Shown here piece after piece: positions 90 to 30,239 of a stretch of DNA of 35,211 nt (the stretch's first letter is position 1; each line of letters starts with the position of its first letter). The notes below the pieces were generated by a model. It did no database searches, had not been told where the DNA came from, and worked only from the letters and a program-made list of their open reading frames with translations. The stretch spans positions 1-35,211 of the forward strand of contig CAYRER010000004.1 in NCBI GenBank assembly GCA_964423385.1, given 5' to 3'. The position numbers were made by a program, and so were the translations under genes. The DNA is from an uncultured Candidatus Saccharibacteria bacterium (GTDB lineage Bacteria; Patescibacteriota; Minisyncoccia; Phycocordibacterales; UBA918).

Positions 90-926
90 ATGAGGATTGG
101 ATGCATTGGTCAGGGGTGGGTGGGGAAGAACATCGCGGACAACTTCGAGGCCCGCGGGTACTCGGTTGTGCGCTACGCGCTCGAACCGGAGTACGCACTC
201 AATCGCCGGCACATCCGGGACTGTGACGTCGTTTTCATCGCAGTGCCGACGCCGACGACGCCGGAAGGCTTTGACTACAGCATTGTCGAGGAGGTAATCG
301 GGCTCGTCGGTGACGGAAAGATTGCCGTGGTGAAGTCGACGCTCCTCCCCGGCACGACTCGCAAGATTCAGGACAAGTACCCCGGGAAGGTCATCCTCTT
401 CTCGCCCGAGTTCCTCTGCGAGGCGACCGCCGCATACGACGTCGCGAACCCGATGCTCAACATCATGGGACTCTCGTACGATTCAGCGGGACACCGGAAG
501 GCGGCGGGCGAGGTCATGCGCATTCTCCCCCGGAGTGATCACAACTTCATTGTCCGCGCCGAGGCTGCCGAACTCTTCAAGTACGCGCACAACATCAACG
601 GTTACATGCGCGTCGTCTTCTCGAATCTCCTCTTCGAGGTAGCCGAGCGGACCGGCATCAACTGGGCAGACGTGAAACTCATCATGGACAGCGATCCGAT
701 GATGTCGCCGTACTACAACTCGCCGATTCATAAGAGCGGACGCGGGGCCGGCGGCCACTGCTTCATCAAGGATATGGCGGCGTTCCGCATGCTCTACGAG
801 GTCAAGAACTCCGAAGATACGAAGGGCATTGCCGTATTCAAAGCCCTCGAAGAGAAGAATCTCGAGCTCCTCAAGAAGACGAACAAGGATGCCGAGCTCG
901 TGAAGGGCGTGTACGGTACAATCTAG
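90..926 (+). CDS. UDP-glucose/GDP-mannose 6-dehydrogenase family protein, short form lacking the C-terminal UDP-binding domain
   Basis: ATG start. N-terminal Rossmann loop IGCIGQGWVG. Family motifs FIAVPTP, KSTLLPGTT, SPEFLCEATA and the catalytic-Cys motif GGHCFIKD are present. The protein is only 278 aa. Confidence 0.7.
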   Translation: MRIGCIGQGWVGKNIADNFEARGYSVVRYALEPEYALNRRHIRDCDVVFIAVPTPTTPEGFDYSIVEEVIGLVGDGKIAVVKSTLLPGTTRKIQDKYPGKVILFSPEFLCEATAAYDVANPMLNIMGLSYDSAGHRKAAGEVMRILPRSDHNFIVRAEAAELFKYAHNINGYMRVVFSNLLFEVAERTGINWADVKLIMDSDPMMSPYYNSPIHKSGRGAGGHCFIKDMAAFRMLYEVKNSEDTKGIAVFKALEEKNLELLKKTNKDAELVKGVYGTI

Positions 927-931
927 GTACC

Positions 932-2068
932 ATGAAGATTTGCTACGTCGCAAACAGCCGCTTTCCGAGCGAGCGTGCGCACATGACGCAGATTGTGCAG
1001 ATGTGCAATGCGTTTGCAGCGGGCGGAGATGACGTGACGCTCCTCGTGACGGACCGGAAGACGCAGGTGGCAGATTCTCCGGAGGTGTTCTTCGGTGTCC
1101 CGATTAATTTTGAAATAGTACGGATTCCCGTGCCGGATATTGCCGGAATCTCCCCGCGGATTCCCATCCTCCTCCGGCCCTTTTTCTTTTCTCTCCAGCG
1201 GATTGTCTTTGCTCTCCGCACAGCGGCGTACGTGCGGAGAACGTGCCCCGATGCCTACGTGTACGGGCGAGATGAGTGGATTCTCTGGTTGCTCTCAAAG
1301 CTCGTCGGCGCGCCGATTGTGTGGGAATCACACGAGGCGCGGTTTTCGTTTGCGGCGCGACGGCTTCTTTCCCGCATACAGCAGTTCGTCGTCATCTCCG
1401 AGGGCATCCACGACTTTTATATACGACAGGGCATTCTATCCGAACGCATGCTCGTGGCTCACGATGCGGTTGATTCCCGCTTCTTCGGCGAGCGCATTTC
1501 GACCGAACATGCCCGGGAGCTTCTCGGTATAGAAACGAAGAAACCCGTCGCTCTCTACATCGGAGGACTCGAGGAGTGGAAAGGCGCGCGGACATTCTTT
1601 GAGGCGGCGCGCCGGCAGGACTTCTTCGACACGTACGTTGTCGGCGGAAAAGAGACGGAGCTTGAGCATTTCCGTGGGGAGTACCCCTCTGTCAATTTCC
1701 TGGGCCCCCGTCCGTACCGGGATCTCCCGAAAGTGCAGCAGGCGGCAGATGTACTCGTCGTCCCGAATACAGCAATGACGCCGCTCTCGGCAGAGTACAC
1801 ATCGCCCCTGAAGCTCTTCGCGCACATGACGTCAGGAAAGCCGATTGCCGCATCGCGCATTCCGAGCATTACGAATGTTCTCGGTGAAGATGAGGCATTT
1901 CTTTTCACCCCCGATAATCCGGAGGACCTCATCCGTGCCATCAGAGAAGCTCTTGAAGAAAACACGCTCGCACACGAGCGGGCAGAACGTGCGTACAAAA
2001 AAAGCTCCCGCTACACGTGGGAGAAGCGGGCGGGGGAGATACGCAGGTTTATGGACGCCTCCCGTTAA
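932..2068 (+). CDS. Glycosyltransferase, GT4-like (GT-B fold)
   Basis: Typical GT4 N-terminus MKICYVANSRFPSERAHMTQIV. The C-terminal donor-binding region SPLKLFAHMTSGKPIAAS is present. The gene starts 5 nt after the upstream stop. Confidence 0.8.
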   Translation: MKICYVANSRFPSERAHMTQIVQMCNAFAAGGDDVTLLVTDRKTQVADSPEVFFGVPINFEIVRIPVPDIAGISPRIPILLRPFFFSLQRIVFALRTAAYVRRTCPDAYVYGRDEWILWLLSKLVGAPIVWESHEARFSFAARRLLSRIQQFVVISEGIHDFYIRQGILSERMLVAHDAVDSRFFGERISTEHARELLGIETKKPVALYIGGLEEWKGARTFFEAARRQDFFDTYVVGGKETELEHFRGEYPSVNFLGPRPYRDLPKVQQAADVLVVPNTAMTPLSAEYTSPLKLFAHMTSGKPIAASRIPSITNVLGEDEAFLFTPDNPEDLIRAIREALEENTLAHERAERAYKKSSRYTWEKRAGEIRRFMDASR

Positions 2069-2069
2069 C

Positions 2070-3065
2070 TCACGCGCGAATTCCGCGCCCTTCGATGCCG
2101 CCGTACCCGAAGTTCGTCTCAACATCCCGGAGTCCGGCTTCCTCGAGCCACGCGTGGAAGGTTTCAATGAACTGCGGCTGGTCGTATGTCGGATTGAGCC
2201 AATCAAAGAGGTGGAGGAGCGCCCACTGCTTGTGAAGGTCATTTGAGAAATTTTTGTACTTCTTCGAGGTCATGAGCTCGGGCACGAGGAGCTTCTGGTT
2301 TATGGAGCGCCCGTACGGGAGCTTCGTGATGACGCACGCGAGCGGCCACATGAGGTTGATGTACGCCTCACAGAGCCGGTAGAGCCTCTCTGGCTCCAGG
2401 TGCCGCACGAACGGCCGGACCCAGTACCGGGTGTTCCACACCTGCCGGTACCACCGGTGCTTCCGGTAGATGTCCATGACGCACGAGCCGCCGGAGCGGA
2501 CTTTCGCGACGATTGAGGAAATGGTCCGCTTCGGGTCGGGGGTGTGCTGGAGAACGCCGATGCACACGGCGCGGTTGAAGTACCCGTCGCGGAACGGGAG
2601 GTTGTACACGTCCGCCTGTACGATGAGGACGGATGGGTTTCCGCCGTGCGACGCGTAGTTCGCCTCGACAGCGACGCTCGCATCGAACGAAGCGATGAAC
2701 GCACCCTTCTTCACGAGCTCTGCTGTGAACCGGCCGGAACCCGAACCGACTTCGAGGATTTTCTCGCCAGGAAGGCTTTCCGGCCACTTCGTCTCAATGC
2801 GAATCCTATTTTCGGAGACGGGCATGCCGGTGAAGCTGTCGTACTGCGTCTTCGCGTGCGTGAGCCACTGGTACCCGAATGCTCCCGTGTAGTGGTCCTC
2901 GGAGGTGAACCGGGGGATGCCGCGGAGAATGGGGAAGGTCTTCCCGCACGCGGAGCAGACAAGGCTCCCGGCCTCGACGCGCTCGCCGGAGCCGGACGCG
3001 TCGCCAAACGAGAGCGATTTTTTGCACGCGGTACAGACGAGGTGCTCGATGTGGCTCCTGAACAT
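2070..3065 (-). CDS. Class I SAM-dependent methyltransferase with an N-terminal Trm112-like Cys4 zinc ribbon
   Basis: Zinc ribbon LVCTACKK...LVCSACGKTFPILRGIPRF. SAM motif I ILEVGSGSGRF and post-motif IGVLQHTPDP are present. The ORF extends to 3176, but the internal ATG at 3065 (MFRSHIEHLVC) places the zinc ribbon at the N-terminus and leaves a 109-nt divergent promoter region. Confidence 0.8.
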   Translation of the reverse strand: MFRSHIEHLVCTACKKSLSFGDASGSGERVEAGSLVCSACGKTFPILRGIPRFTSEDHYTGAFGYQWLTHAKTQYDSFTGMPVSENRIRIETKWPESLPGEKILEVGSGSGRFTAELVKKGAFIASFDASVAVEANYASHGGNPSVLIVQADVYNLPFRDGYFNRAVCIGVLQHTPDPKRTISSIVAKVRSGGSCVMDIYRKHRWYRQVWNTRYWVRPFVRHLEPERLYRLCEAYINLMWPLACVITKLPYGRSINQKLLVPELMTSKKYKNFSNDLHKQWALLHLFDWLNPTYDQPQFIETFHAWLEEAGLRDVETNFGYGGIEGRGIRA

Positions 3066-3174
3066 GTCCGCAAGTATACTGTCCCGAAGACCCCGAGACA
3101 AATAGAACCGCGGGAAGCCGGCACACAACCTTTCTTTCCGCTTGCCGGTAATAATACTTATAACTCGAATCACC

Positions 3175-4158
3175 ATGGATGCACGGGAACACCTCTACCG
3201 CACCATCGACGCCATGCCGGACGCACGCGTCCTCGTCGTCGGCGACGTCATGCTCGACGTGTACGAACGGTGCGCGGTCAGACGCATCTCCCCGGAAGCA
3301 CCGGTTCCGGTCGCTACGGTTCTCGAGGATTCCTCGTTCCTCGGCGGCGCAGGCAATGTCGCAAGCAATGTGCGTGCTCTCGGAGCGTCTGTTTCGATTG
3401 CGGGTGTTATCGGCAGTGACCGTGAGGGCGAGACGGTGCGGAAGCTCCTTCAAGAACAGGGAATCAATGACACAGGTCTCGTCGTCGAGGAGGGCAGGGT
3501 AACCACGGTAAAGCGGCGGATTGTCTCAGGGACACAGCAGCTCATTAGGATTGACCGGGAAATGACGGAGGACATAGATGCCGGTACCGAGCTTGCAATC
3601 TGTGATGCAATTGCCAGGCTCATTCCGGAGCATGATGTCGTCGTCGTTTCAGATTACTGCAAGGGTCTCCTTACCGAGAGTGTCATCAGTTTTGTAAAAG
3701 AGATAGCGACACAGTCAGGGAAGAAAATCTTTGTCGATTCAAAAAGCCGTCACCTTTCCCGCTACAGCGGGGTACACCTCATTAAGCCCAACAAGGCAGA
3801 GGCAGAGGCATTCGCCGGCGAGGCGTTTGCTCACGACTATGCTAATCTGGAGACCGTCGGAAGGCGGCTTTCCGCGATGCTCTCATCAAACCTCGTCGTG
3901 ACGCTCGGCGGCGACGGGATGGCGCTGTTTGAAGTGGAGAGGTTTGCACACAAACGAACCCTTGCACAAGATGTGTTCGATGTCTCGGGAGCGGGCGATA
4001 CGGTACTCTCGGTCGTTGCAACCGCGGTCGCGGTCGGCGCCGACCTCGAGAGTGCCGTTGACCTTTCAAATCACGCAGCCGGATACGTGGTGAGTAAACT
4101 CGGGACTGTTGCGTGCAACCAGGAAGTCCTCCGGGCAGCGCTTCAAGCTGCTCTGTAA
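3175..4158 (+). CDS. hldA: D-glycero-beta-D-manno-heptose-7-phosphate kinase (RfaE domain I / HldA-type PfkB kinase), stand-alone
   Basis: VLVVGDVMLDVY, ISPEAPVPV, GGAGNVASNVRALG and DVSGAGDTV match the kinase half of E. coli HldE almost motif for motif. ATG at 3175; the track ORF begins at a TTG at 3142. Confidence 0.85.
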   Translation: MDAREHLYRTIDAMPDARVLVVGDVMLDVYERCAVRRISPEAPVPVATVLEDSSFLGGAGNVASNVRALGASVSIAGVIGSDREGETVRKLLQEQGINDTGLVVEEGRVTTVKRRIVSGTQQLIRIDREMTEDIDAGTELAICDAIARLIPEHDVVVVSDYCKGLLTESVISFVKEIATQSGKKIFVDSKSRHLSRYSGVHLIKPNKAEAEAFAGEAFAHDYANLETVGRRLSAMLSSNLVVTLGGDGMALFEVERFAHKRTLAQDVFDVSGAGDTVLSVVATAVAVGADLESAVDLSNHAAGYVVSKLGTVACNQEVLRAALQAAL

Positions 4159-4178
4159 CCAAGGCACCACAATACACA

Positions 4179-4745
4179 ATGCGCACATTTTTTCTCCAAG
4201 ACATTCCGCTTGCGGACATACGACACAACGACCTCCCTGCGTATCTCGCTGAGGGGTTCGGCGGGAAACCGATTGAGGAGTGGCCGGTGTACCGGTTCTT
4301 CACAATGTACTGGGAGGGTAACCGGGAAGAGGCCACCAGAGAGTTTGTCGAGTGGTACAGGGACCAGCTTGGGAAGTACGCGATGGTGCCGAAGCGGGAC
4401 GGAGGGATGCGCCGAGGTTCTCTCTACAACCTCATTGAGAAGCGGTGCGGCGTGCCGTTTGAGAAGACGGAAACCTCCTGCCGCGAGGCGACAATCCGGG
4501 AGCGCGTCTCACAGCGGCTCGGACTCCTCGACACCATACAGAGCCGCGGGTACCAGGCGGGGGAGGCAGAGCGCATCGACGGATTTCGGGAAAAGGGATT
4601 TGTGTACCTCACCGGAGGGCACCACCGCGCGGCAATCCTCAAGGTGCTCGGGGAGGAGAAGCTCCCCGGCGTGTTAGTATTCCCGAACCGGCTCGTTTAT
4701 AATTTCTTCACCTTACTCCGAAACATTCGACATGGCAGTATTTAA
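4179..4745 (+). CDS. Hypothetical protein with a ParB/sulfiredoxin-like GGHHR motif
   Basis: ATG at 4179, 20 nt after the upstream stop; the track ORF starts at a GTG at 4113 inside the upstream gene. The C-terminal segment GFVYLTGGHHRAAILKVLG resembles the GxxHR nucleotide-binding signature of the ParB/Srx fold. No other family was recognised. Confidence 0.6.
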   Translation: MRTFFLQDIPLADIRHNDLPAYLAEGFGGKPIEEWPVYRFFTMYWEGNREEATREFVEWYRDQLGKYAMVPKRDGGMRRGSLYNLIEKRCGVPFEKTETSCREATIRERVSQRLGLLDTIQSRGYQAGEAERIDGFREKGFVYLTGGHHRAAILKVLGEEKLPGVLVFPNRLVYNFFTLLRNIRHGSI

Positions 4746-5415
4746 CGACAAGAAAGCATACAAGGAGTGGATTGACGGTCAGGACTGGTACCAGACCATT
4801 GACCTGCCGAGCGGGCTTCGGACTCCCGGGAAAGTTCCCACCGAGCTTCGGATGCCGCTCTTTGACAGCATTGACTTTGCAGGGAAGTCCGTCCTCGATG
4901 TGGGCTGCAATTCCGGCCAGTACTCTTTTGCGGCAAAGGACCGGGGAGCACGTGAGGTTGTCGGCATCGACCTCGATGCGAAGCGCATCGCCCAGGCGCG
5001 CACCCTCGCCGAGAATGAAGGGTACGACGTCTCCTTTGAGGAGCGGAATATCTTTGATGCACCGTTTGACCGCCGATTCGATATCGTTCTCTGCATCGCG
5101 GTGCTCACCGAGATTCAGGACACATTCAGTGCCATTGAGCGTCTCAAGAACGTCATCGGCTCGTACGCGCTCATTGAACTCTCGCTCGCCCGGCCGATTG
5201 TCTATGCTTCGTACTCAAAGCGCTGGCTCCGGGGGTACGACGGACTTTCGCGCCGGAGCGCCGTCGCCGAGGTGCGGAAGATACGCGGAGACAAGTGGGT
5301 CGTCGATCCGTCGTTCGATGTTCTCAAGGCTATCTTCGGACCGGAGTTCAAGCTTACCCGTAAGGGGCGCGGTGTCCGGTACGACCTCGTTGAGGTTGTC
5401 CGCATCGCCGGCTGA
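4732..5415 (+). CDS. Class I SAM-dependent methyltransferase (DUF1698/CmoB-like N-terminus)
   Basis: WYQTIDLPSGLRTPGK is followed by SAM motif I VLDVGCNSGQYS and then VVGIDLD. The gene overlaps the upstream gene by 14 nt. Confidence 0.8.
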   Translation: MAVFNDKKAYKEWIDGQDWYQTIDLPSGLRTPGKVPTELRMPLFDSIDFAGKSVLDVGCNSGQYSFAAKDRGAREVVGIDLDAKRIAQARTLAENEGYDVSFEERNIFDAPFDRRFDIVLCIAVLTEIQDTFSAIERLKNVIGSYALIELSLARPIVYASYSKRWLRGYDGLSRRSAVAEVRKIRGDKWVVDPSFDVLKAIFGPEFKLTRKGRGVRYDLVEVVRIAG

Positions 5416-6575
5416 TGCCTATGAAGAAGATTATCCTCCACGTACGCAACTTCATTCTCTTTCTCCGTGCGCTCCTCTCGATTGTCCGCTACGGGACGCG
5501 GAGGGACGTTCCTGCACACCCGCCAAAGAAGGTGCTCGTCGTCCAGCTCGCGAAGCTCGGAGATATGGTGTGCATCACTCCGGTGCTCCGCGCACTGAAG
5601 CAACATCTGCCCGAGACGAAAGTATACGTGCTCGGAGATGCGCTCAATAAGAAAGTTCTTGAGCACAATCAGGATGTCGACGAGTACATTATCTTTGACC
5701 GTCGTGAGCTCCCCGGCGTCATTCGCCGTCTTAAGGAAGAGCAGATTAATGTTGCATGCATTCGCGGGATTGGGTTCATAGGACTCGCCCTCGTTCTCCT
5801 TGCAGGCATACAGGTGGTTGTCACCTCCCGCGTCGCCGAGGGTAAAGGATTTGAGACACGGACGTATCGGTGGCTCCTCCCGTACGTACGGACAATCGAT
5901 TTGCGGTTCGGAGAATATATGCCTCGTCAGTTTCTTCGGCTCCTTGAACCTCTCGGAATTCATGCTGACGATACGACGAAGCACCTCGGCTTTTCGGAAG
6001 CAGCAGATAGAAAAATAAATGCATTCATTGCGGAAAAGGGTGTCGACATCCAGAGAGACTTCGTCGTCGCAGTGTCACCGTCTGCAGGACATAAGATAAA
6101 AGAGTGGCCCGGAGACCGTTTTGCTGAAGTCATCGATTACCTGATTACAGTGCATGGAGCGAAGATTCTTCTTATTGGGGGACCAATGGATGAGGAAAAG
6201 GTCAGTACCGTTCTCAAACATAGCCAGAATGCCGAAGAGGTCATCAATACACAAGGTCAACTCAGCATAGATGAACTGAAGGCACTTTTGTCCAAGGTGC
6301 ACCTATTTATAAGCGTCGATACGGGGCCGATTTATATTGCAGAGGCATTCGGTACGCCGACCATAGACATTACTGGTCCAATTGATGAAAGAGAACAGCC
6401 GCCAATAAGCGACATCCATAAGGTAGTCACTCCTCCACATCGGACAGGGCCGGAACTCTTCGTCATGAATGCAAAAGGATATGATAAGGCAGAAGCACGC
6501 CGACAGACGGAGTCGATTACAGCCAGCATGGTCATTAATACGTTTGAGGAGCTATATCTGCGCATAAAGAAATAA
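5415..6575 (+). CDS. Glycosyltransferase family 9 (heptosyltransferase-like) with an N-terminal hydrophobic extension
   Basis: VLVVQLAKLGDMVCITPVLRALK, PSAGHKIKEWPGDRFAEV and ISVDTGPIYIAEAFGTPTI are the characteristic GT9 blocks. The start codon overlaps the upstream TGA by 1 nt (TGATG). Confidence 0.8.
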   Translation: MPMKKIILHVRNFILFLRALLSIVRYGTRRDVPAHPPKKVLVVQLAKLGDMVCITPVLRALKQHLPETKVYVLGDALNKKVLEHNQDVDEYIIFDRRELPGVIRRLKEEQINVACIRGIGFIGLALVLLAGIQVVVTSRVAEGKGFETRTYRWLLPYVRTIDLRFGEYMPRQFLRLLEPLGIHADDTTKHLGFSEAADRKINAFIAEKGVDIQRDFVVAVSPSAGHKIKEWPGDRFAEVIDYLITVHGAKILLIGGPMDEEKVSTVLKHSQNAEEVINTQGQLSIDELKALLSKVHLFISVDTGPIYIAEAFGTPTIDITGPIDEREQPPISDIHKVVTPPHRTGPELFVMNAKGYDKAEARRQTESITASMVINTFEELYLRIKK

Positions 6576-6576
6576 T

Positions 6577-7473: not shown

Positions 7474-7480
7474 CAATACA

Positions 7481-7747
7481 ATGGAAACAGAGACAAATGA
7501 GAACAAAAAGACTCTGCCGGGGCGCTTCAAGTCTTGGCTCTTCGCTTCACCCATCGGGCGGCTCTTCATCGACCGGCGGTTCTTCAACTACACACTCATC
7601 GGCGTTTTCATATCGCTCCTCAACATATTCCTCCTCTGGCTTCTCATCGATATCTTCGAGATTTCCACGGTCATTGCGAGTACGCTCGTCATCGGTTCGA
7701 CATTTATTTTCCGCTACGTACTCTTCCGCCTCTTTGACGTGATGTAA
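7481..7747 (+). CDS. GtrA-like small membrane protein, about half the usual size
   Basis: FFNYTLIGVFISLLNIFLLWLLIDIF...TLVIGSTFIFRYVLFRLF resembles the GtrA family, but I see only about two hydrophobic helices. ATG at 7481 follows the upstream stop; the track ORF starts at a TTG at 7460. Confidence 0.55.
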   Translation: METETNENKKTLPGRFKSWLFASPIGRLFIDRRFFNYTLIGVFISLLNIFLLWLLIDIFEISTVIASTLVIGSTFIFRYVLFRLFDVM

Positions 7748-7751
7748 GAGA

Positions 7752-8720: not shown

Positions 8721-8736
8721 AGTTGCGTAGTACCGG

Positions 8737-9588: not shown

Positions 9589-9677
9589 GACCCAAGTATA
9601 CACGTTTCGGGGGCGGGGCGTGCATTGCCGGGCAATAGTCATTTTCAGGGAGATGTGCAATTATAGAGACACTCAAA

Positions 9678-10409: not shown

Positions 10410-10413
10410 GCGT

Positions 10414-13333: not shown

Positions 13334-13334
13334 G

Positions 13335-20461: not shown

Positions 20462-20477
20462 GGTGTCAGAAGGAACA

Positions 20478-23437: not shown

Positions 23438-23501
23438 GGCTAACGTGATAAAGTACAACACTGCCTTCCAGGCAGCAATCTCGTAGTGGTATCATTTCCT
23501 T

Positions 23502-24245: not shown

Positions 24246-24246
24246 C

Positions 24247-25509
24247 TTAACCCCGGCTTACGCGTAACCACAGGCCAATATTGATAATAGTACCAATCAA
24301 GGTATTGAGTAGATTTGCATACACTAGGCCAATTACTCCCCCCCAGATACCACCAACAACATAGAGTACGACTGCAATACCACTTTGCATGAATGTCCGA
24401 CTAAAAAGAGTCCTCGAGAGGCCCTGAGAAGTGAACAGGAGACTCATATATCGATTGGGGAGAGCAAAAATGAAGTTCATGGCAAGCAGCTGGGAGTAGC
24501 GGATGCTCTCAAGGTACTGGGGCAGGAGGTACGTAAATACATACGGCGAGACAATAATGTATCCCGCTGTCGCGGTAAGGCCGATGAGCATTCCCTGGAC
24601 AATCCGCCGGTAGAACACCTGGTTGATTTCAGCAAACGTCTTTTCGGCAAACTTCGGGAATCCGACCGCCACCCAGCTCTTGATGAAGAGCGTTGCACGC
24701 GCAGGGATGGCACTCGCGAGTGCATAGACCGCAAGGGGTCCGGCACCCCAGAAACTTCCGAGGATGAGCTTGTCGACCTGAGAGACAACAGGATCAATGA
24801 AGCGCAGGTAGGTGAGCTCTCTGCCGTACTGCTCCGTCTCCCGTATGTCAGGTGCAGCGCCAAGCCCGAATCTCCGGACAACATACACGTAAAAGACGTA
24901 TGCGGGGATGAAGGTAGCTGCCGTGTACGCAACGATGAGCCAGACAACTTCATCGGTCAGAAGAAGCGCAACAAGCATACCGAGGGAATACGTGAGCGTT
25001 GAGAGGACGCTGAGGACGTTCGCAAGTCCGAACCGTTTCATTCCCTCGAGGTACGAGCTGTACGTATTGAAGGCGAGCGTGAAGGGAACGAACGAACCGA
25101 GGATGAGGAGAGCTGTACCAAGTACCTGGTCTCCCTGAGAGAGGTAGTACCCGCCGAGGACGTATGACGCAGCGAGCATGAGAAGATTCCACTTGAACTG
25201 GTAGCCGACCGCCGGACGGAGTACATCTTCGCCACCGCGCGCAACGGCCCGCGCAACGGCATTGTTCATGCCGGTGAGCGTGAAGATGTTGAGAATGCCG
25301 GCGATGGAGAGTATGTAGCGGTAGAGACCGTACGTTTCCTTCGGGAGCAGGTTGGCAAACGCAATGACGAGAAGGAGCGAGAGAACGCTGTTCATTGTCT
25401 GACCGAGCACTACCCAGGAGCCGCTCTTTGCAATATAGAGCATGTCCGCACGGGTATATTTCTGACTCCAGAGGAGGATGTTTCTGGCGTGTGTTCGAAT
25501 ATTTCTCAC
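24247..25509 (-). CDS. wzx: Wzx-type oligosaccharide flippase (MOP superfamily polysaccharide biosynthesis protein)
   Basis: A 420-aa polytopic membrane protein. The N-terminus (KYTRADMLYIAKSGSWVVLGQTMNSVLSLLLVIAFANLL...YGLYRYILS) is typical of flippases in polysaccharide clusters. GTG start with AGGAG immediately upstream. Confidence 0.75.
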   Translation of the reverse strand: MRNIRTHARNILLWSQKYTRADMLYIAKSGSWVVLGQTMNSVLSLLLVIAFANLLPKETYGLYRYILSIAGILNIFTLTGMNNAVARAVARGGEDVLRPAVGYQFKWNLLMLAASYVLGGYYLSQGDQVLGTALLILGSFVPFTLAFNTYSSYLEGMKRFGLANVLSVLSTLTYSLGMLVALLLTDEVVWLIVAYTAATFIPAYVFYVYVVRRFGLGAAPDIRETEQYGRELTYLRFIDPVVSQVDKLILGSFWGAGPLAVYALASAIPARATLFIKSWVAVGFPKFAEKTFAEINQVFYRRIVQGMLIGLTATAGYIIVSPYVFTYLLPQYLESIRYSQLLAMNFIFALPNRYMSLLFTSQGLSRTLFSRTFMQSGIAVVLYVVGGIWGGVIGLVYANLLNTLIGTIINIGLWLRVSRG

Positions 25510-25631: not shown

Positions 25632-26225
25632 ATGAAGGAGCATATCAGGGAGTCGATTGCGGTGAAGGAGCGTCTGCTCAAGGACGATGCATTTCTCCGG
25701 ACACTCGGGGAGGTTGTTGAAGAGCTCAGGGGGGTGTACGAACGGGGAGGAAAAATCCTCATTGTTGGGAATGGGGGAAGCGCTGCGGACGCACAGCATT
25801 TTGCAGCGGAGATTACGTGCCAGTTTAAAGAGACGAGGAGGGGGTACCCTGCCCTCGCACTCCACACAGACACTTCCGCGATGACCGCGTGGGGGAACGA
25901 CAAGAGCTTCGATACGGTCTTCGCACGACAGGTCGAAGCTCATGGGCGGGCAGGTGACGCTCTCGTCGTTATTTCGACGAGTGGAAACTCAAAGAATCTC
26001 ATTGCTGCTGCGAAAGAGGCACGAGTGAAAGGTCTTCGCATTGTGGGACTCCTCGGCAGAGACGGTGGGGAGCTTGTGAGTGGAGGATACTGTGATCACG
26101 TACTCATTGTGCCGTCAGAAGAGACTCCTCGCATTCAGGAGTCGCACATCCTTCTCATCCACATCATTTGCGACGCTCTCGATGGGTTTTTTGTGACGCT
26201 CGCCAAGCAGGATTCTGAACGATAG
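25632..26225 (+). CDS. gmhA: D-sedoheptulose-7-phosphate isomerase (phosphoheptose isomerase, SIS domain)
   Basis: GNGGSAADAQHFAAE, VISTSGNSKN and IQESHILLIHIICD are present. The 197-aa size fits GmhA. Confidence 0.9.
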   Translation: MKEHIRESIAVKERLLKDDAFLRTLGEVVEELRGVYERGGKILIVGNGGSAADAQHFAAEITCQFKETRRGYPALALHTDTSAMTAWGNDKSFDTVFARQVEAHGRAGDALVVISTSGNSKNLIAAAKEARVKGLRIVGLLGRDGGELVSGGYCDHVLIVPSEETPRIQESHILLIHIICDALDGFFVTLAKQDSER

Positions 26226-26289: not shown

Positions 26290-27939
26290 ATGAGTTCAGA
26301 GAATGCCGATATACTCCACTTGCCGCGATTAAACCTCAAGGGAAGGACTCTCCACGACCTCGAGGTGATGCTCGTCGGCGGCTTCTTGCCGGTCAGGGGC
26401 TTTATGGACGAGGAGGATTACACCTCTGTCGTCGAGACGATGCGCCTCAAGGACGGCAGTCTTTTTCCGATTCCTATTGTACTCGATATTCCGCATGATA
26501 GTACGTATCAGGCCGGAGACCGGATCCTCCTCTGCGACCCATTTGGGAACCCCGTGGCTACCATGGACATCACCTCGCGCTTTACTCCCGATAAGGAGAA
26601 GGAATCGCTCGGTGTGTACGGCACGCTCGACAAGACACACCCCGGGGTGGAGTACCTCATGGACGAAATGCACGATACGTACGTGGGTGGTCCCGTCACG
26701 AAGATTGCGCTCCCCATGCGGCACGACTTCAAGCAGTTTCGGCAGACGCCCGAGGACCTGAAGAAGCTCTTCAAAGAGCGCGGGTGGGACAAGGTTGTCG
26801 GTTTCCAGACCAGGAACCCCATGCACCGCGCGCACTTCGAGCTCGTGAAGCGTGCCTACGAAAAGACGGGTGCTCCAGTCCTCGTGCACCCGGTCGTCGG
26901 CATGACGAAGCCGGGTGATATTGATTACGTGACGCGCGTCCGCACGTACAACGTTGTCTGCAACACGTACGGAAAGGATTTTACGCACCTTGCTCTTCTT
27001 CCCTTGGCAATGCGCATGGCGGGTCCCCGCGAAGCTCTCTGGCATGCCATCATCCGGAAGAACTACGGCTGTACACACTTCATCTCGGGACGCGACCACG
27101 CGGGGCCGGGGAAGGACAGCAAGGGGAACCCGTTCTACGAGCCGTATGAGGCGCGCGACCTGCTCCTCAAGCATGCGGACGAAATCGGCATTACGGTCGT
27201 TCCATCGGACGAACTTGCGTACTCGAAGACCCGGGGGACGTATGTTGCCGCGGACGAGGTGACGCCGGAAGATGAGATTGAGAATATCTCCGGCACCGAG
27301 TTCCGTCGGCGTCTCCGTGAAGGGGAGGATATTCCCGAGTGGTTTTCGTTCAAGGAGTCAATCGACATCCTCCGCGAGAGCGTGAAGAAAGACACCCGTC
27401 CGGGCGTCATGATTTTCTTCACGGGTCTCTCGTGCTCAGGAAAGTCGACCCTGGCTCAGCTCCTCCTCGCACGGCTCCAGGAGCTCCAGGACCGCGACAT
27501 CACGTTCCTCGACGGCGACATCATCCGTACGCACCTCTCGAAGGGTCTCGGTTTTTCGAAGGAGGATCGTGACGAGAACGTGAAGCGCGTCGGCTTCGTC
27601 GCCGCGGAAGTTGTCCGCCACGGCGGCATCGTCATCTCGGCGCTCATCGCGCCGTATCGCGACGCGCGTCGGTACGTCCGGAACATGATTGAGCACTACG
27701 GCGAATTCATTGAGATTTTTGTCGACACCTCGCTCGAAGAGTGTGCACGGCGTGATACGAAGGGGCTCTACGAAAAGGCACGGCAGGGGCTCATCAAGAA
27801 CTTCACTGGCGTCGATGATCCGTACGAGCGCCCGGAGCACCCCGAGCTTATCGCAAAGACTGAAGAAGCAACGCCCGAGGTACTGGTAGAAAACATACTC
27901 GAGTACCTCTACGAGAGAGGGGTTTTGACACAGAAGTAA
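26290..27939 (+). CDS. sat: Bifunctional sulfate adenylyltransferase (ATP sulfurylase) / adenylylsulfate kinase; PAPS synthase
   Basis: Sat motifs FQTRNPMHRAHFEL and GRDHAGPG. C-terminal APS-kinase P-loop FFTGLSCSGKSTLA, then LDGDIIRTHL and ISALIAPY. Confidence 0.9.
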   Translation: MSSENADILHLPRLNLKGRTLHDLEVMLVGGFLPVRGFMDEEDYTSVVETMRLKDGSLFPIPIVLDIPHDSTYQAGDRILLCDPFGNPVATMDITSRFTPDKEKESLGVYGTLDKTHPGVEYLMDEMHDTYVGGPVTKIALPMRHDFKQFRQTPEDLKKLFKERGWDKVVGFQTRNPMHRAHFELVKRAYEKTGAPVLVHPVVGMTKPGDIDYVTRVRTYNVVCNTYGKDFTHLALLPLAMRMAGPREALWHAIIRKNYGCTHFISGRDHAGPGKDSKGNPFYEPYEARDLLLKHADEIGITVVPSDELAYSKTRGTYVAADEVTPEDEIENISGTEFRRRLREGEDIPEWFSFKESIDILRESVKKDTRPGVMIFFTGLSCSGKSTLAQLLLARLQELQDRDITFLDGDIIRTHLSKGLGFSKEDRDENVKRVGFVAAEVVRHGGIVISALIAPYRDARRYVRNMIEHYGEFIEIFVDTSLEECARRDTKGLYEKARQGLIKNFTGVDDPYERPEHPELIAKTEEATPEVLVENILEYLYERGVLTQK

Positions 27940-27940
27940 A

Positions 27941-27973
27941 ACAAACCCGCCCGCCTCCGGCGGGCGGGTTTGT
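27941..27973 (+). terminator. Perfect 15-bp stem hairpin immediately after the sat/cysC stop codon
   Basis: acaaacccgcccgcc / tcc / ggcgggcgggtttgt. Confidence 0.6.
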
Positions 27974-28055
27974 ACCTTGACGCACGAGCGAACCCGTAAT
28001 GAAGTGAGCCGTGGTTTCATGGGGGAAGGGGAGGTATGGTATAGTTTTTGACACT

Positions 28056-30239
28056 ATGAAAGACATCGCAAAGGCAGTCGTGTACGCCGGTATCTTCGCT
28101 GTTCCGGCAATCGTGCTCATTATCTCGAACAACCTCTTTTTCCCGTTCATTACCGGAAAGAACTTCACGTTCCGCATCATCGTCGAAATCGTCTTCGCGG
28201 CGTGGATTATCCTCGCGCTCTATGATGCACAGTACCGGCCGAAGTTTTCCTGGATTCTCGGGGCATTCCTCGCCTTCCTCGTCGCCATCTTCTTCTCGGA
28301 CCTTTTCGGCGCGTACTCGCTCCAGAGTTTCTGGAGCAATTTTGAGCGCATGGAGGGGTATGTAACCCTCGTCCACACGTTCCTCTACTTTGTCGTCGCC
28401 GGAAGCATCCTCAGGACCGAAAAACACTGGGATAGGTTTTTCCTCACGACCATCGGCGTCGCCCTCGTCGTCTCCCTCTACGCGTTCGCACAGCTCTCGG
28501 GGAACATCGTCATCAACCAGGGCGGGTGGCGTCTCGACGGGACCCTCGGCAACTCGTCGTACATGGCGATTTACATGCTCTTCCACACGTTCATCGCACT
28601 CTTCATGCTTCTCAGGACCCCGAACGTGCCGATGCGGTGGGTCTACGGTGCACTCACCGTCCTCTTCATCTACCTCCTCGTCCAGACCGCGACGCGCGGA
28701 ACCATCCTCGGTCTCGTCGGCGGGTCGCTCGTCATGGTGACCTACATGGCGCTCTTCGCGAAGAACTATCCGAACGTCCGGAAGGCTGCGGCAGGCGGGC
28801 TCGTCGCCCTCGTCGCTATAGTCGCGCTCTTCATCACGTTCAAAGAGTCTGCGTTTGTGCAGGGGAACCCGTACCTCCAGCGTGTCGCCACCATCTCGCT
28901 TGCCGAAGCGCAGAACCGCTTCAACATCTGGAGCATGGCTTTCGAGGGCGTAAAGGAGCGTCCGATTTTCGGGTGGGGCCAGAGCAACTATGGCTATGTC
29001 TTCAACAAGTACTACAAGCCGGAGCTTCACGGTCAGGAAGCGTGGTTTGACCGCGTCCACAACATCGTCATGGACTGGCTCATCGCGGGCGGATTCGTCG
29101 GGGTCACCCTCTACTTCTCGATTGTCGCCGCGGCGCTCTACTACCTCTTCCTCCGACCCCTCACGAGAGACGATGAAACGTTTTCGGTTGTCGAGCGGGG
29201 CGTGCTCATCGGGCTCATTGTCGGATACTTCATCCACAACTTCGTCGTCTTCGACAACATCGTGAGCTACATCTTCTATGGCACCATTCTTGCGTACATC
29301 CACGCGCGGGTTGCCACACCCGTCCCCTCCATCGAGCGGTTCAAGATTGACGGCCGGATTGTCGAGCAGGTGGTCTCGCCCATTGTCGCTGTCGTACTCC
29401 TCATCACGGTCTACTACGTGAACGTTCCGGGCATCCAGGCGGCAGGCGACATCATCGACGGATTCCGCGCGACGAACGGGGAAGAAATACTCGCGTCGTT
29501 CGAACGTGCGCTCGCGCGCGGGTCGTTCGGGACGCAGGAAATCCGCGAGCAGATGATGCAGCGCATCCAGCCCCTCTTCCAGGACCCGAACCTTTCTGAG
29601 GAATTCAAGCAGCGCGCGTTCAAACGCGTCGAGGAAGAGCTCCTCGCGCAGCTTGAAGAAAAGCCAGGCGACGCACGTGCACACGTCTTCATGGCCTCGT
29701 TCTACCGCATGACGAACAACCTGGAGCCCGCAATAGAGCAGCTCGCAAAGGCGCGTGAACTTTCACCCCGGAAACAGCTCATCATTTTCGAGCAGGGTAT
29801 GGCGGAGATTCAGCGGCAGAACTACGAGGCAGGACTCCAGTTCTTCAAGGAGGCGTACGAGCTGGGGACCCAGTTCACCGAATCACGCGTTCTCTACGCG
29901 ATGGCTGCCGTTTACGCCGGGAAGCTTGGACTCGTCGATGAGCTTCTCCCGACACCGGAAGACAAGCGCGCGTTTGCACTCAACGATATGGCGGTTCAGG
30001 CAGTCTACACGGCGAAGATGTACCCGCTCCTTGTCGATATGTTTAACACCCGCATCGAGGCAAATCCCGCCGAACCGCAGATTCGCACGAGTCTCGCATT
30101 TATCCTCAACGAGTCGGGTGACACGAAGGGTGCCATTGAGGTGCTCCGAAGGGCCGCTGAAGACATCCCTTCATTCAAAGCGCAGGCAGAGAATTTTATC
30201 GTGAACCTCGAGAACCCCGGACCAACACCGGCCCAGTAG
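28056..30239 (+). CDS. Wzy_C / O-antigen-ligase-family membrane protein with a C-terminal TPR-like repeat domain
   Basis: TATRGTILGLVGG and HNIVMDWLIAGGFVGVTLY are Wzy_C-type blocks. The C-terminal roughly 230 aa form helical repeats (AIEQLAKARELSP..., GAIEVLRRAAEDIP). ATG at 28056; an alternative GTG lies at 28011. Confidence 0.8.
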   Translation: MKDIAKAVVYAGIFAVPAIVLIISNNLFFPFITGKNFTFRIIVEIVFAAWIILALYDAQYRPKFSWILGAFLAFLVAIFFSDLFGAYSLQSFWSNFERMEGYVTLVHTFLYFVVAGSILRTEKHWDRFFLTTIGVALVVSLYAFAQLSGNIVINQGGWRLDGTLGNSSYMAIYMLFHTFIALFMLLRTPNVPMRWVYGALTVLFIYLLVQTATRGTILGLVGGSLVMVTYMALFAKNYPNVRKAAAGGLVALVAIVALFITFKESAFVQGNPYLQRVATISLAEAQNRFNIWSMAFEGVKERPIFGWGQSNYGYVFNKYYKPELHGQEAWFDRVHNIVMDWLIAGGFVGVTLYFSIVAAALYYLFLRPLTRDDETFSVVERGVLIGLIVGYFIHNFVVFDNIVSYIFYGTILAYIHARVATPVPSIERFKIDGRIVEQVVSPIVAVVLLITVYYVNVPGIQAAGDIIDGFRATNGEEILASFERALARGSFGTQEIREQMMQRIQPLFQDPNLSEEFKQRAFKRVEEELLAQLEEKPGDARAHVFMASFYRMTNNLEPAIEQLAKARELSPRKQLIIFEQGMAEIQRQNYEAGLQFFKEAYELGTQFTESRVLYAMAAVYAGKLGLVDELLPTPEDKRAFALNDMAVQAVYTAKMYPLLVDMFNTRIEANPAEPQIRTSLAFILNESGDTKGAIEVLRRAAEDIPSFKAQAENFIVNLENPGPTPAQ

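Follow-up and report, generated by a model that had tools for sequence, protein, structure and literature searches.

A conserved cell-surface glycan locus beside secA in a Paceibacteria bacterium pairs heptose-type genes with a KdsB-family cytidylyltransferase cassette

What might a bacterium that we take to be a monoderm without LPS build with GmhA-, HldA-, GT9- and KdsB-like enzymes? The window that raises this question (the whole 35,211-nucleotide stretch analyzed; Table 1) carries a conserved locus for a cell-surface glycan, located beside secA, from a CPR bacterium of the ultra-small Paceibacteria (Kaiserbacteria-like). An earlier note, made from the sequence alone, described a Wzx/Wzy-type glycan island without lipid A context. 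That description held: the locus is not an LPS locus, and every gene named in the note was found where it had been placed, and the flanking murB, Lys-rich micro-ORF, secA and DUF360 genes are present. From gene identities, folds, synteny and co-occurrence, we favor, with somewhat better than even confidence, an explanation in which the locus makes a non-LPS glycan fed by two sugar branches, and in which the acidic sugar of one branch is not KdsA-made Kdo.

SecA is 70% identical to homologs from Ca. Kaiserbacteria and Paceibacterota MAGs, and the closest relatives of SecA, MurB, the Wzy_C/TPR protein and DUF360 lie on Paceibacteria contigs that share this synteny. By SecA and its fellow flanking genes, the contig falls in the Patescibacteria, near Kaiserbacteria/Paceibacteria. 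The CPR/Patescibacteria origin suggested earlier is borne out both by SecA and by the names (Kaiserbacteria or Patescibacteria) of the close KdsB-like relatives, which are 75-78% identical. None of the ORFs scanned in the window showed a domain of lpx, waaA, kdsA or lpt genes, confirming the absence already claimed. A published survey of CPR MAGs (PMC9166423, supplementary file 3) scored the KEGG modules for Kdo2-lipid A and CMP-Kdo as absent from every CPR class.

Table 1. Features of the window, in order of position.
Feature	Coordinates	Strand	Evidence or remark
Short protein resembling UDP-glucose/GDP-mannose dehydrogenases, limited to the N-terminal and central domains	90..926	+	PF03721, PF00984
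GT4 (GT4_a)	932..2068	+	Pfam; paired with GT9 in related loci
SAM methyltransferase with Trm112p-like zinc ribbon	2070..3176	-	Pfam
HldA-like D-glycero-beta-D-manno-heptose-7-phosphate kinase, stand-alone RfaE domain I	3175..4158	+	TIGR02198
ParB/Srx-fold protein, invariant GHHR motif	4179..4745	+	Family profile
SAM methyltransferase	4732..5415	+	Pfam
GT9-family glycosyltransferase (heptosyltransferase family)	5415..6575	+	PF01075
SAM methyltransferase (Methyltransf_23)	6577..7473	+	Pfam
GT2, PgfS/ArnC-like	7752..8720	-	PF00535
YdjC-family carbohydrate deacetylase	8737..9660	-	PF04794, 203 bits
SAM methyltransferase	9678..10409	+	Profile search
Polytopic membrane protein, ~11 hydrophobic segments	10393..12177	+	Hydropathy
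GT4	12206..13333	+	Pfam
SAM methyltransferase	13537..14187	+	Profile search
GT4 (GT4_c)	14208..15455	+	Pfam, synteny
KdsB-family cytidylyltransferase, CPR clade (motifs KTLGIHLFR, ESTDMLR)	15476..16264	+	TIGR00466, NF003952
Gfo/Idh/MocA-fold sugar dehydrogenase (residues ~1-390) fused to SAM methyltransferase (residues ~520-670)	16384..18570	+	Pfam, AlphaFold2, Foldseek
Ldh_2-family alpha-hydroxyacid/alpha-ketoacid oxidoreductase	18582..19679	+	PF02615, 354 bits
IMPase-family sugar-phosphate phosphatase	19676..20413	+	PF00459, 191 bits
Uncharacterized 341-aa protein, GT-B-like C-terminal motif	20478..21503	-	Gene calls, motif
Uncharacterized GT-B-fold protein, 588 aa	21671..23437	+	AlphaFold2, Foldseek
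FkbM-family methyltransferase	23502..24245	+	PF05050
Wzx-type flippase (Polysacc_synt)	24247..25509	-	Pfam; position conserved
GmhA-like sedoheptulose-7-P isomerase, SIS_2	25632..26225	+	TIGR00441
Bifunctional ATP sulfurylase/APS kinase (PAPS synthase)	26290..27939	+	NF004040, 779 bits (cut-off 669)
Wzy_C (O-antigen ligase/polymerase-like) membrane protein, C-terminal TPR repeats	28011..30239	+	Profile search
MurB	30255..31361	+	Flank, housekeeping
Lys-rich ORF, 36 aa	31563-31673		Flank
SecA	31827..34355	+	Flank; served for taxonomic placement

About a dozen Paceibacteria contigs have their genes in the same sequence ahead of Wzy_C/TPR-(murB)-secA (loci L089/L095, L091, L092, L098-L100, L102, L105, L107 and L109), and the same locus occurs on Patescibacteria-type contigs of 443 kb and 510 kb. 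The order runs [GT4]-GT9-[MTs]-GT2-membrane protein-...-GT4_c-cytidylyltransferase-(2-Hacid_dh or Ldh_2)-(Gfo or Zn-ADH), and continues with [SIS-phosphatase]-GT-B-[FkbM]-Wzx-Wzy_C/TPR-[MurB]-SecA. In the related loci, GT4_c stands upstream of the cytidylyltransferase gene either directly or with one short gene between. The Wzy_C/TPR gene is next to murB and secA in L009-L016. It immediately precedes murB/secA in L091, L100 and L109; in L099, L102 and L107, whose contigs stop before secA, it follows wzx.

Profile HMMs recovered the three GT4s, the GT2, Wzx and the Wzy_C/ligase-like protein that had been listed for this DNA. The GT2 is a probable polyprenyl-phosphate sugar synthase, judging from scores under the cut-offs of NF047588 (137 bits) and NF007986 (135 bits), and the short dehydrogenase-like protein also scored under cut-off with TIGR03026 (110 bits). 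The membrane protein previously called GT-C-like is indeed polytopic; it matched no family in profile searches and stays a candidate GT-C-like transferase, with homologs (51-59% identical) adjoining GT2 in L089, L098, L099 and L102. No initiating phosphoglycosyltransferase was recognized in the window, nor was a sulfotransferase. The window encodes seven SAM-methyltransferase domains, which the earlier note did not list, along with a PAPS synthase, an IMPase-family phosphatase, Ldh_2, the Gfo/Idh/MocA-methyltransferase fusion and a YdjC deacetylase, likewise absent from it.

Profile searches supported the GmhA, RfaE domain I, GT9 and KdsB assignments. The heptose-7-P kinase scored 329 bits with TIGR02198 (rfaE_dom_I; cut-off 345), covering profile positions 4-314 of 315, and its gene opens with an ATG at 3175; the isomerase scored 184 bits with TIGR00441 (cut-off 209; E 2e-54, full length); and the GT9 protein scored 84.7 bits with PF01075 (cut-off 22), its best PDB relative, 3TOV, being itself a GT9 (E 5e-22). 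GT9 is present in six related loci, and a GmhA-like homolog (66% identical) lies within the cassette of L098; among the loci compared, the HldA-like kinase is present in this window only. Neither GmhB nor HldC is encoded in the window, where the heptose nucleotide pathway is incomplete. This heptose aspect is already partly known: among CPR classes, ADP-heptose biosynthesis was reported for Paceibacteria only (PMC9166423). The ParB/Srx-fold protein encoded between the kinase and the next methyltransferase is not HldC; its family profile matches the free serine kinase 5X0B (E 4e-4) and sulfiredoxin. It has no Pfam match and belongs to a family of 126 representative clusters, whose members include fusions with SAM-MT, GT2 or Wzx; it is probably a small-molecule kinase or a nucleotide-binding partner of that methyltransferase.

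The KdsB-family cytidylyltransferase scored above the cut-offs of TIGR00466, the NCBI KdsB equivalog model (174.5 versus 155.2), and NF003952 (242 versus 193). It shares ~40% identity with E. coli K-CKS (1GQ9), its closest matches in the PDB are without exception KdsB or K-CKS enzymes, and its catalytic motifs PAR..SSR.PGK, QGDEP and VDT are kept. The equivalog score and the identity to solved KdsB enzymes make Kdo or a close analogue a possible substrate. These features speak for a true CMP-Kdo synthetase, in which case the glycan would be a non-LPS polymer that reuses two LPS-inner-core sugars, genuine Kdo and heptose. The Kdo would then come from a KdsA encoded elsewhere, or be salvaged from the diderm hosts or neighbors of this epibiont, with the neighboring dehydrogenases and methyltransferase tailoring Kdo or other sugars. 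E. coli imports exogenous Kdo analogues, which KdsB activates and LPS incorporates (PMC12199768), so salvage with KdsB alone is chemically feasible.

Nevertheless, we regard genuine Kdo as unlikely. Two Kdo-contacting residues of E. coli KdsB, H181 and Y185, are replaced by T and H, respectively, in every member of the CPR clade. Y185 bonds the C5-OH of Kdo (PMC12199768), and RHIGVYAYR has been named a substrate-binding motif (PMC7717453); a His at the Y185 position could itself bond the C5-OH. Neither KdsA, KdsC, KdsD nor WaaA (GT30) was ever found beside the CPR-clade enzyme in this locus or about a dozen related ones, and the CMP-Kdo module was scored absent in CPR MAGs. The Kdo explanation also leaves the invariant coupling to dehydrogenases unexplained, and the associated transferase shows no sequence kinship and no specific fold kinship to WaaA, KpsC/S or WbbB. 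The cassette probably makes a different acidic sugar, most likely not canonical KdsA-made Kdo. Of the heptose- and Kdo-containing non-LPS glycoconjugate proposed earlier, the non-LPS part and the KdsB family membership stand; the Kdo part is doubtful, given the altered residues and non-Kdo partners, and the heptose part is left with a pathway that is incomplete in the window.

These partners are consistent across loci: a sugar dehydrogenase occurs in 14/14 informative loci, an alpha-hydroxyacid dehydrogenase in 11/12 (it was not found in the cassette of L098), and the GT-B protein in 11/11. Unrelated enzymes replace one another in role-preserving swaps: 2-Hacid_dh stands in for Ldh_2 in nine related loci, an MDR Zn-ADH for Gfo, and a HAD phosphatase (L098) for the IMPase kept in L089, L092, L099, L105 and L108. 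The cytidylyltransferase cassette often includes a SIS isomerase and a phosphatase. Foldseek searches with the Gfo-methyltransferase model (AlphaFold2 pLDDT 76) returned aldose 1-dehydrogenases as the closest structural matches of the Gfo domain, led by L-arabinose 1-dehydrogenase 7CGQ (E 5e-14, TM 0.78); the family also includes nucleotide-sugar 3-dehydrogenases such as WlbA and GnnA, which were among the matches and count against the explanation that we favor. The two halves of the fusion are separate genes in L092.

Two unclassified GT-B-like proteins had been noted. The 588-aa protein does have a GT-B fold (AlphaFold2 pLDDT 81; Foldseek matches to GT-B and 2-epimerase folds), whereas the 341-aa protein, with homologs in L092, L098 and L099, has only a GT-B-like C-terminal motif; a 460-aa plus-strand ORF overlying it is spurious by gene calls. 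Sequence searches of Pfam and the PDB gave no match to the 588-aa protein, and its 319 homologs, mostly from Patescibacteria, are all 'hypothetical'. A CTP_transf_3 gene lies within ~10 kb of it in all loci examined. In L108 it accompanies a NeuB-like synthase, an IMPase and a PseF-like cytidylyltransferase, leaving a CMP-sugar synthetase as its sole constant partner. For this reason we take it to be a candidate CMP-ulosonic-acid transferase of an undescribed family.

The NeuB-like synthase of L108 also speaks for a second alternative, in which the product is a 3-deoxy-2-ulosonic acid other than Kdo, formed by an aldol condensation that depends on pyruvate or PEP. The enzyme for this condensation would be encoded outside the locus or be among its unannotated proteins, and the dehydrogenases would serve either in preparing the aldehyde partner or in tailoring the product. 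In L093 and L094, related cassettes outside the CPR clade, a class II pyruvate aldolase (HpcH/HpaI) is encoded right beside the cytidylyltransferase and 2-Hacid_dh, and the L094 2-Hacid_dh and Gfo proteins are ~61-64% and 64-73% identical to their CPR-locus counterparts. A pyruvate-aldol route is thus suggested there, making the role of the dehydrogenases less certain. However, no DAHP_synth_1, NeuB or aldolase was found in the window, related KdsB-type CPR loci likewise showed no PEP- or pyruvate-condensing enzyme, with neither an aldolase nor a NeuB homolog within 10 kb in any of them, and in the minimal loci L100, L102 and L107 the cytidylyltransferase, 2-Hacid_dh, Gfo and GT-B genes are contiguous, with none intervening. 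For this locus we consider an aldol route improbable.

In the explanation that we favor, whose substrates, step order and acceptor we infer, a lipid-linked oligosaccharide would be built in the cytoplasm by the GT4, GT9, GT2 and unclassified GT-B enzymes, heavily O-methylated by the SAM-methyltransferase domains, and possibly sulfated by way of the PAPS synthase. Wzx would flip it, and Wzy_C/TPR would then polymerize it or ligate it to an acceptor other than lipid A, for instance a protein or wall polymer. One feed would be the heptose branch (GmhA-like isomerase, HldA-like kinase and GT9), with a phosphatase and nucleotidyltransferase that the window does not encode. The other would be a CMP-activated acidic (2-ulosonic) sugar supplied by the cassette of GT4_c, cytidylyltransferase, Gfo-methyltransferase, Ldh_2, IMPase and GT-B protein. 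By the preferred route, a sugar phosphate, here probably GmhA-derived heptose-7-P, would lose its phosphate; the Gfo domain would oxidize the resulting sugar at C1 to an aldonate, and Ldh_2 or 2-Hacid_dh would oxidize this at C2, giving a 2-keto-aldonic (2-ulosonic) acid, which the cytidylyltransferase would join to CMP for transfer by the 588-aa GT-B protein.

That the contig instead comes from a diderm mistaken for CPR, and carries its ordinary LPS core/O-antigen genes, is very improbable: GmhA, HldA, GT9, KdsB, Wzx and Wzy_C are classical families of such loci, but the flanking genes and Wzy_C/TPR are nearest to syntenic Paceibacteria contigs, the locus recurs on the two large Patescibacteria-type contigs, lipid A, Lpt and WaaA genes are absent from the 35 kb, and the lipid A module was scored absent in CPR MAGs. 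The conserved partners of the CPR-clade cytidylyltransferase are thus not KdsA, KdsC, KdsD or WaaA but dehydrogenases for sugars and alpha-hydroxyacids, together with a novel GT-B protein.

The window holds what is best described as a Wzx/Wzy_C glycan locus that carries an unusual, putative CMP-ulosonic-acid cassette and a member of an undescribed GT-B family. The coding fraction of the window is 94%, with a median intergenic gap of 20 nt. Every long ORF was scanned with Pfam profiles, and key ORFs with NCBIfam profiles. The four genes central to the earlier note (GmhA-like, heptose-7-P kinase, GT9 and KdsB-family) were confirmed by profile HMM, KdsB scoring above its curated cut-off and GT9 above the Pfam gathering score, and the GmhA-like protein and the kinase aligning over their full length but below their cut-offs. 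The ORF scans also recovered three GT4s, a GT2, Wzx, a Wzy_C/TPR protein, murB, a 36-aa Lys-rich ORF, secA and a DUF360 gene as that note had described them; also in agreement with it, Pfam scans of the window yielded no domain of the lpx, waaA, kdsA or lpt genes. Missed at that stage were the seven SAM-methyltransferase domains, a PAPS synthase, an IMPase-family phosphatase, an Ldh_2 dehydrogenase, a 728-aa dehydrogenase-methyltransferase fusion and a YdjC deacetylase.

Table. Features of the glycan locus, their positions in the window and the profile or structural matches recorded for them (bit scores against the profile's cut-off).
Feature	Position	Match
GT4_a (GT4 glycosyltransferase)	932-2068	
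SAM-methyltransferase domain	2070-3176 (-)	
Stand-alone RfaE-domain-I kinase	3175-4158	TIGR02198, 329 bits vs 345, full length
ORF with ParB/Srx fold	4179-4745 (+)	
SAM-methyltransferase domain	4732-5415	
GT9	5415-6575	PF01075, 84.7 bits vs 22; closest solved structure, GT9 entry 3TOV
SAM-methyltransferase domain	6577-7473	
SAM-methyltransferase domain	9678-10409	
SAM-methyltransferase domain	13537-14187	
GT4_c (GT4 glycosyltransferase)	14208-15455	
KdsB-family cytidylyltransferase	15476-16264	TIGR00466, 174.5 bits vs 155.2; ~40% identity to E. coli K-CKS
728-aa Gfo/Idh/MocA dehydrogenase-methyltransferase fusion	16384-18570	
SAM-methyltransferase domain	17900-18570	
Ldh_2 dehydrogenase	18582-19679	
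IMPase-family phosphatase	19676-20413	
341-aa protein	20478-21503 (-)	
588-aa GT-B protein	21671-23437	
SAM-methyltransferase domain	23502-24245	
GmhA-like SIS_2 protein	25632-26225	TIGR00441, 184 bits vs 209
Bifunctional ATP-sulfurylase/APS kinase (PAPS synthase)	26290-27939	NF004040, 779 bits vs 669
36-aa basic ORF	31563-31673 (+)	

A 460-aa, Arg/Gly/Glu-rich plus-strand ORF (20292-21674), the longest in its region, was rejected as an antisense shadow of the real 341-aa gene. The 341-aa protein has homologues in three related loci fetched from other contigs (L092, L098 and L099), and no sequence match in Pfam (E<=10) or the PDB. The 36-aa ORF between murB and secA is very basic (MPAKKKAAKKTAKRK...); related loci L109 (11077-11181) and L091 (15111-15323) likewise have a short ORF, of 34 and 70 aa respectively, immediately before murB or secA.

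SecA is 70% identical to proteins from Ca. Kaiserbacteria and Paceibacterota MAGs and ~45-50% identical to those of diderm phyla; the Wzy_C/TPR-MurB-SecA arrangement is also present in those Paceibacteria contigs, and the closest relatives of the cytidylyltransferase carry Kaiserbacteria or Patescibacteria annotation. Together, these observations support the suggestion of the earlier note that the DNA comes from the CPR. Proteins identical to those of the window were found on short contigs from several sequencing runs, indicating a real environmental population. In a survey of freshwater CPR MAGs, the Kdo2-lipid A (M00060) and CMP-Kdo (M00063) modules were absent from all eight CPR classes, and ADP-heptose biosynthesis was encoded, among CPR, only in Paceibacteria (PMC9166423). 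Neither Lpx, WaaA nor Lpt/Bam was found in the 35-kb window or in any related locus examined. The earlier note had proposed a glycoconjugate, distinct from LPS, that contains heptose and Kdo. The non-LPS part of this proposal is supported by these loci; heptose is plausible, with an incomplete pathway, and Kdo is doubtful in view of the substrate residues and partners of the cytidylyltransferase. The labels 'KdsB', 'GmhA' and 'heptosyltransferase' in CPR genomes are no evidence of LPS, and call for caution in annotation.

Related loci were fetched through homologues of the cytidylyltransferase and a metagenome scan with the clade alignment, and further ones through homologues of the 588-aa protein and two more distant cytidylyltransferase relatives; a synteny table was then computed by tblastn. 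One order recurs across Paceibacteria (L089/L095, L091, L092, L097-L100, L102, L105, L107 and L109): [GT4_a]-GT9-[methyltransferases]-GT2-polytopic membrane protein-...-GT4_c-cytidylyltransferase-(2-Hacid_dh or Ldh_2)-(Gfo/Idh/MocA or Zn-ADH)-[SIS isomerase-phosphatase]-[341-aa protein]-588-aa protein-[FkbM]-Wzx-Wzy_C/TPR-[MurB]-SecA. The glycan locus is therefore conserved and no accidental island. In the minimal loci L100, L102 and L107, the cytidylyltransferase, 2-Hacid_dh, Gfo and 588-aa protein genes are directly adjacent. Among informative loci, the cytidylyltransferase is accompanied by a sugar dehydrogenase in 14 of 14, by the 588-aa protein in 11 of 11, and by an alpha-hydroxyacid dehydrogenase in all but one (L098) of 12. 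In three positions of the cassette, unrelated enzymes replace one another from locus to locus: Ldh_2 or 2-Hacid_dh, Gfo or a GT2-fused MDR Zn-ADH, and IMPase or a HAD phosphatase. Such replacement suggests that the cassette requires the activities rather than particular genes. Identification of the Zn-ADH fusion of L091 and L109 as glucose 1-dehydrogenase was rejected on NCBIfam scores, which were best for threonine and inosose dehydrogenases. In L097, a Fic/DOC-domain gene (8853-9437) is inserted directly upstream of the cytidylyltransferase. The GC content of the window falls from ~0.58 to 0.48-0.51 at 13000-15000 (methyltransferase/GT4_c) and at 22000-25000 (GT-B/FkbM/Wzx), a pattern that fits exchange of modules between lineages.

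As judged by HMM, the cytidylyltransferase is a member of the KdsB family; besides TIGR00466 it exceeds the cut-off of NF003952 (242 versus 193) and falls just under that of NF009905 (252.7 versus 255). We aligned it with 120 homologues and two solved KdsB enzymes. The catalytic and CTP-binding motifs (PAR..SSR.PGK, QGDEP and VDT) are kept in the window protein and its clade. The canonical substrate motifs, [KR]H[VI]GIYAYR and E.LEQLR, are replaced throughout the clade (~49/49 members) by KT[LI]G[IV]H[LI]FR and ES[TC]DM[LI]R; in the window protein, KTLGIHLFR corresponds to H181 to T and Y185 to H (E. coli KdsB numbering), changes that are invariant in the ~49 clade members. In E. coli KdsB, Q98 and Y185 bond the C5-OH of Kdo, and H181 is an active-site residue (PMC12199768); RHIGVYAYR has been described as a substrate-binding motif (PMC7717453). 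The next tier of homologues (~55% identical), which takes in the Zambryskibacteria-type CPR loci L091 and L109, has KQVCxIPF[RK] and ESVDM[LM]R; KQVCxIPF marks a broader PRK13368-type 'KdsB' subfamily.

We conclude that this enzyme would activate a 2-ulosonic acid. True Kdo, made through a distant kdsA or obtained by salvage, is the less likely identity of that acid. The KdsB HMM scores above cut-off and the intact catalytic motifs are consistent with it, but H181 and Y185 are replaced, neither KdsA, KdsC, KdsD nor a Kdo transferase was found in the window or ~12 related loci, and the CPR survey scored the CMP-Kdo module absent (PMC9166423). Since both the substrate residues and the pathway context depart from those of the Kdo system, canonical Kdo is a doubtful substrate. 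A literature search on Kdo or KdsB in CPR returned nothing relevant.

The conserved partners may point instead to an oxidative route. The 728-aa fusion, modelled from 12 homologues (pLDDT 76), has a complete Gfo/Idh/MocA fold at residues ~1-390 and a C-terminal SAM methyltransferase; the two halves are separate genes in L092. The best Foldseek match of the Gfo domain was L-arabinose 1-dehydrogenase (E 5e-14, TM 0.78), with L-glucose/scyllo-inositol dehydrogenase and aldose-aldose oxidoreductase among the other best matches; the nucleotide-sugar 3-dehydrogenases WlbA and GnnA also matched. The 2-Hacid_dh family includes 2-ketogluconate reductases and Ldh_2 includes 2,3-diketo-L-gulonate reductase, both of which act on 2-keto sugar acids. 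In the scheme that we infer, the SIS protein would isomerize a sugar phosphate (in the window this protein is the GmhA-like one, which would convert sedoheptulose-7-P to heptose-7-P) and the IMPase would dephosphorylate it. The Gfo domain would then oxidize C1 to a lactone or aldonate, and Ldh_2 would oxidize C2 to give a 2-keto-aldonic (2-ulosonic) acid, which the cytidylyltransferase would couple to CMP. Lastly, the 588-aa GT-B enzyme would transfer the acid onto the sugar added by GT4_c, and the fused methyltransferase would O-methylate it. Such a scheme would use every conserved gene and require no absent one.

An HpcH/HpaI aldolase gene beside the cytidylyltransferase in L093 and L094 suggests an aldolase-based route to the ulosonic acid, but neither an HpcH or other aldolase, NeuB nor DAHP_synth_1 (KdsA) was found in the KdsB-type CPR loci by homology search and Pfam scan of unexplained ORFs. 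In those two loci, which lie outside the window clade (L093 6491-8780; L094 5148-11972), genes of the KQVCxIPF KdsB subfamily adjoin the pyruvate aldolase and a 2-Hacid_dh. L094 also has a Gfo gene, two SIS_2 proteins, an SDR and a TIGR04425 AroB-related enzyme, and L093 a 6-phosphogluconolactonase-like gene and a HAD; these gene sets may represent a pathway to an ulosonic acid, so far undescribed, in bacteria other than those of the window clade. Nothing relevant was found in the literature on an aldolase- or dehydrogenase-based ulosonic acid pathway. Returning to the oxidative route, we tentatively suggest, as a possibility of low confidence, that Paceibacteria make an undescribed CMP-2-ulosonic acid with a Gfo dehydrogenase, an alpha-hydroxyacid dehydrogenase and a diverged KdsB, independently of a KdsA/NeuB-type condensation, and that a new GT-B family, so far mostly from CPR, installs the acid on a surface glycan. 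Candidates for the product are a hept-2-ulosonic acid and other 2-keto-aldonic acids, which may be O-methylated.

The 588-aa protein has no match in Pfam (E<=10), NCBIfam or, by sequence, the PDB. At least 319 homologue clusters were found, all of them 'hypothetical'; the named ones are nearly all from Patescibacteria, and one is fused to GT4. Its AlphaFold2 model (pLDDT 81) has a two-Rossmann-domain GT-B fold. At E<=1e-3, Foldseek matched 160 PDB entries, of which the top 50 are GT-B glycosyltransferases and UDP-GlcNAc 2-epimerases (E 1e-8 to 1e-5); WaaA, KpsC, WbbB or a specific Kdo/sialyl transferase match was not among these top 50 of 160. The family has an invariant His followed by Gly, not by Pro as in the HP motif of sialyl/Kdo-type transferases. 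A CTP_transf_3 gene lies within ~10 kb of the family gene in all loci examined, including three retrieved with the GT-B protein itself as query. L108 lies on a 443-kb groundwater contig of Patescibacteria type; there (4124-8806), a family member is grouped with a divergent NeuB-like synthase, a PseF-like cytidylyltransferase and an IMPase-like phosphatase, a predicted nonulosonic-acid-type cassette in CPR. Because the CMP-sugar synthetase is the sole constant partner whereas the genes for acid synthesis vary, the pattern is that expected of a CMP-acid transferase. The 588-aa family may thus be a candidate new glycosyltransferase family that transfers a CMP-activated acid.

Of the heptose genes, GT9 belongs to the conserved set of the locus; the HldA-like kinase, among the compared loci, was seen in the window only. 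The GmhA-like protein matches full-length (E 2e-54) and scores 191 against the NF010546 cut-off of 276, compared with 136 bits for the profile of the paralogue DiaA. The kinase covers 311 of 315 positions of TIGR02198, with the next-best PfkB families below 95 bits, and the GT9 protein is below cut-off for the WaaC, WaaF and WaaQ equivalogs. Neither a CTP_transf_like domain nor a HAD domain of GmhB type was detected by Pfam scans of the window, and hence no HldC or GmhB; the IMPase might take over the phosphatase step. The GmhA-like, HldA-like and GT9 genes make heptose in the glycan plausible. The ORF at 4179-4745 was considered as the missing heptose-1-P nucleotidyltransferase and rejected: its ParB/Srx fold resembles that of free serine kinase, and fusions to methyltransferases are frequent in its family. 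Its family (126 representative clusters) has an invariant GHHR and fusions to SAM methyltransferases, GT2 or Wzx, and its profile matches free serine kinase (ParB/Srx fold) at E 4e-4, and also sulfiredoxin. The ORF overlaps the start of the next gene, a methyltransferase. Such a pairing of a putative kinase with a methyltransferase would be reminiscent of WbdD, which caps O-antigens with a phosphate-methyl group.

Seven methyltransferase domains within 25 kb imply an unusually heavily methylated glycan; related loci are likewise rich in methyltransferases, and some have B12-radical-SAM genes too. The PAPS synthase gene, flanked by the GmhA-like gene and Wzy_C, implies sulfation in an organism of minimal metabolism. 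No sulfotransferase domain was recognized anywhere in the window, and the glycan is possibly sulfated by an enzyme that such profiles do not recognize. Together, a PgfS/ArnC-like GT2, YdjC and the conserved polytopic membrane protein resemble a module for decoration via a polyprenyl-phosphate sugar. Wzx (PF01943, 70.8 bits) and Wzy_C (PF04932, 67.3 bits) are clear, and no window ORF has a Bac_transf or MraY-like domain that would mark an initiating phosphoglycosyltransferase; such an enzyme may be encoded elsewhere in the genome. The Wzy_C/TPR protein keeps its place beside murB and secA across Paceibacteria; with lipid A taken to be absent, it would have to be a polymerase, or a ligase acting on a protein or wall acceptor.

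The CPR/Patescibacteria make up a large share of bacterial diversity, are mostly thought to be host-attached, and have an essentially unknown surface chemistry; a lineage-wide locus in such a group is for that reason of interest. Its conservation across Paceibacteria beside murB and secA indicates that it probably encodes the main surface glycan, and so is likely to influence how these cells attach to hosts and are recognized by phages. The diverged KdsB is a target whose substrate can be assayed, the four-enzyme cassette may define a new route to acidic sugars, and the unannotated ~590-aa GT-B proteins may represent a new glycosyltransferase family.

Compared with the CMP-Kdo pathway of diderms (KdsD-KdsA-KdsC-KdsB, with WaaA of GT30, KpsC/KpsS or WbbB of GT99), the window has a KdsB-family enzyme with intact catalytic motifs, a phosphatase and a SIS-fold isomerase nearby, and a GT-B-fold transferase downstream. 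It differs in having no KdsA-type condensing enzyme, in the replacement of two Kdo-contacting residues, in the Gfo-type and alpha-hydroxyacid dehydrogenases that partner the cytidylyltransferase, and in an organism taken to be without lipid A; the 588-aa protein has neither sequence similarity to Kdo transferases nor a specific fold match to them among the top Foldseek matches. Of the ADP-heptose pathway (GmhA, HldE or HldA plus HldC, GmhB, and WaaC/WaaF), the window has GmhA-like, HldA-like and GT9 members, all three scoring under NCBI equivalog cut-offs, but not HldC or GmhB. Heptose-containing S-layer glycans of Gram-positives such as Aneurinibacillus are a precedent for heptose in a monoderm, non-LPS glycan.

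Like Wzx/Wzy O-antigen or capsule loci and PglL/PilO (Wzy_C) protein glycosylation systems, the locus compactly combines Wzx, Wzy_C, GT4s, a GT2 and sugar-modifying enzymes. Unlike them, it has no recognized initiating phosphoglycosyltransferase or chain-length regulator, its Wzy_C carries TPR repeats and is syntenic with murB/secA, and a lipid A-core acceptor is taken to be absent. In sequence, the large polytopic membrane protein resembles none of the known GT-C families. It adjoins a PgfS/ArnC-like GT2 as in Gtr/Arn/Pgf decoration (GT2 polyprenyl-phosphate sugar synthase plus GT-C), and the adjacent YdjC deacetylase is placed in the manner of ArnD.

Nonulosonic-acid cassettes occur in O-antigens, capsules and general protein O-glycosylation, for example in Tannerella forsythia (PMC5420450). 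Those for sialic, pseudaminic and legionaminic acids and Kdn consist of a NeuB synthase, a phosphatase, a CMP-synthetase and a sialyltransferase-like GT-B. The window has two dehydrogenases in place of the synthase, and its cytidylyltransferase is of the KdsB rather than the NeuA/PseF type. The predicted logic is nonetheless shared, in that an acidic ulosonic sugar would be activated with CMP and passed to a dedicated GT-B inside a Wzx-type locus, and L108 pairs the same GT-B family with a NeuB-like cassette.
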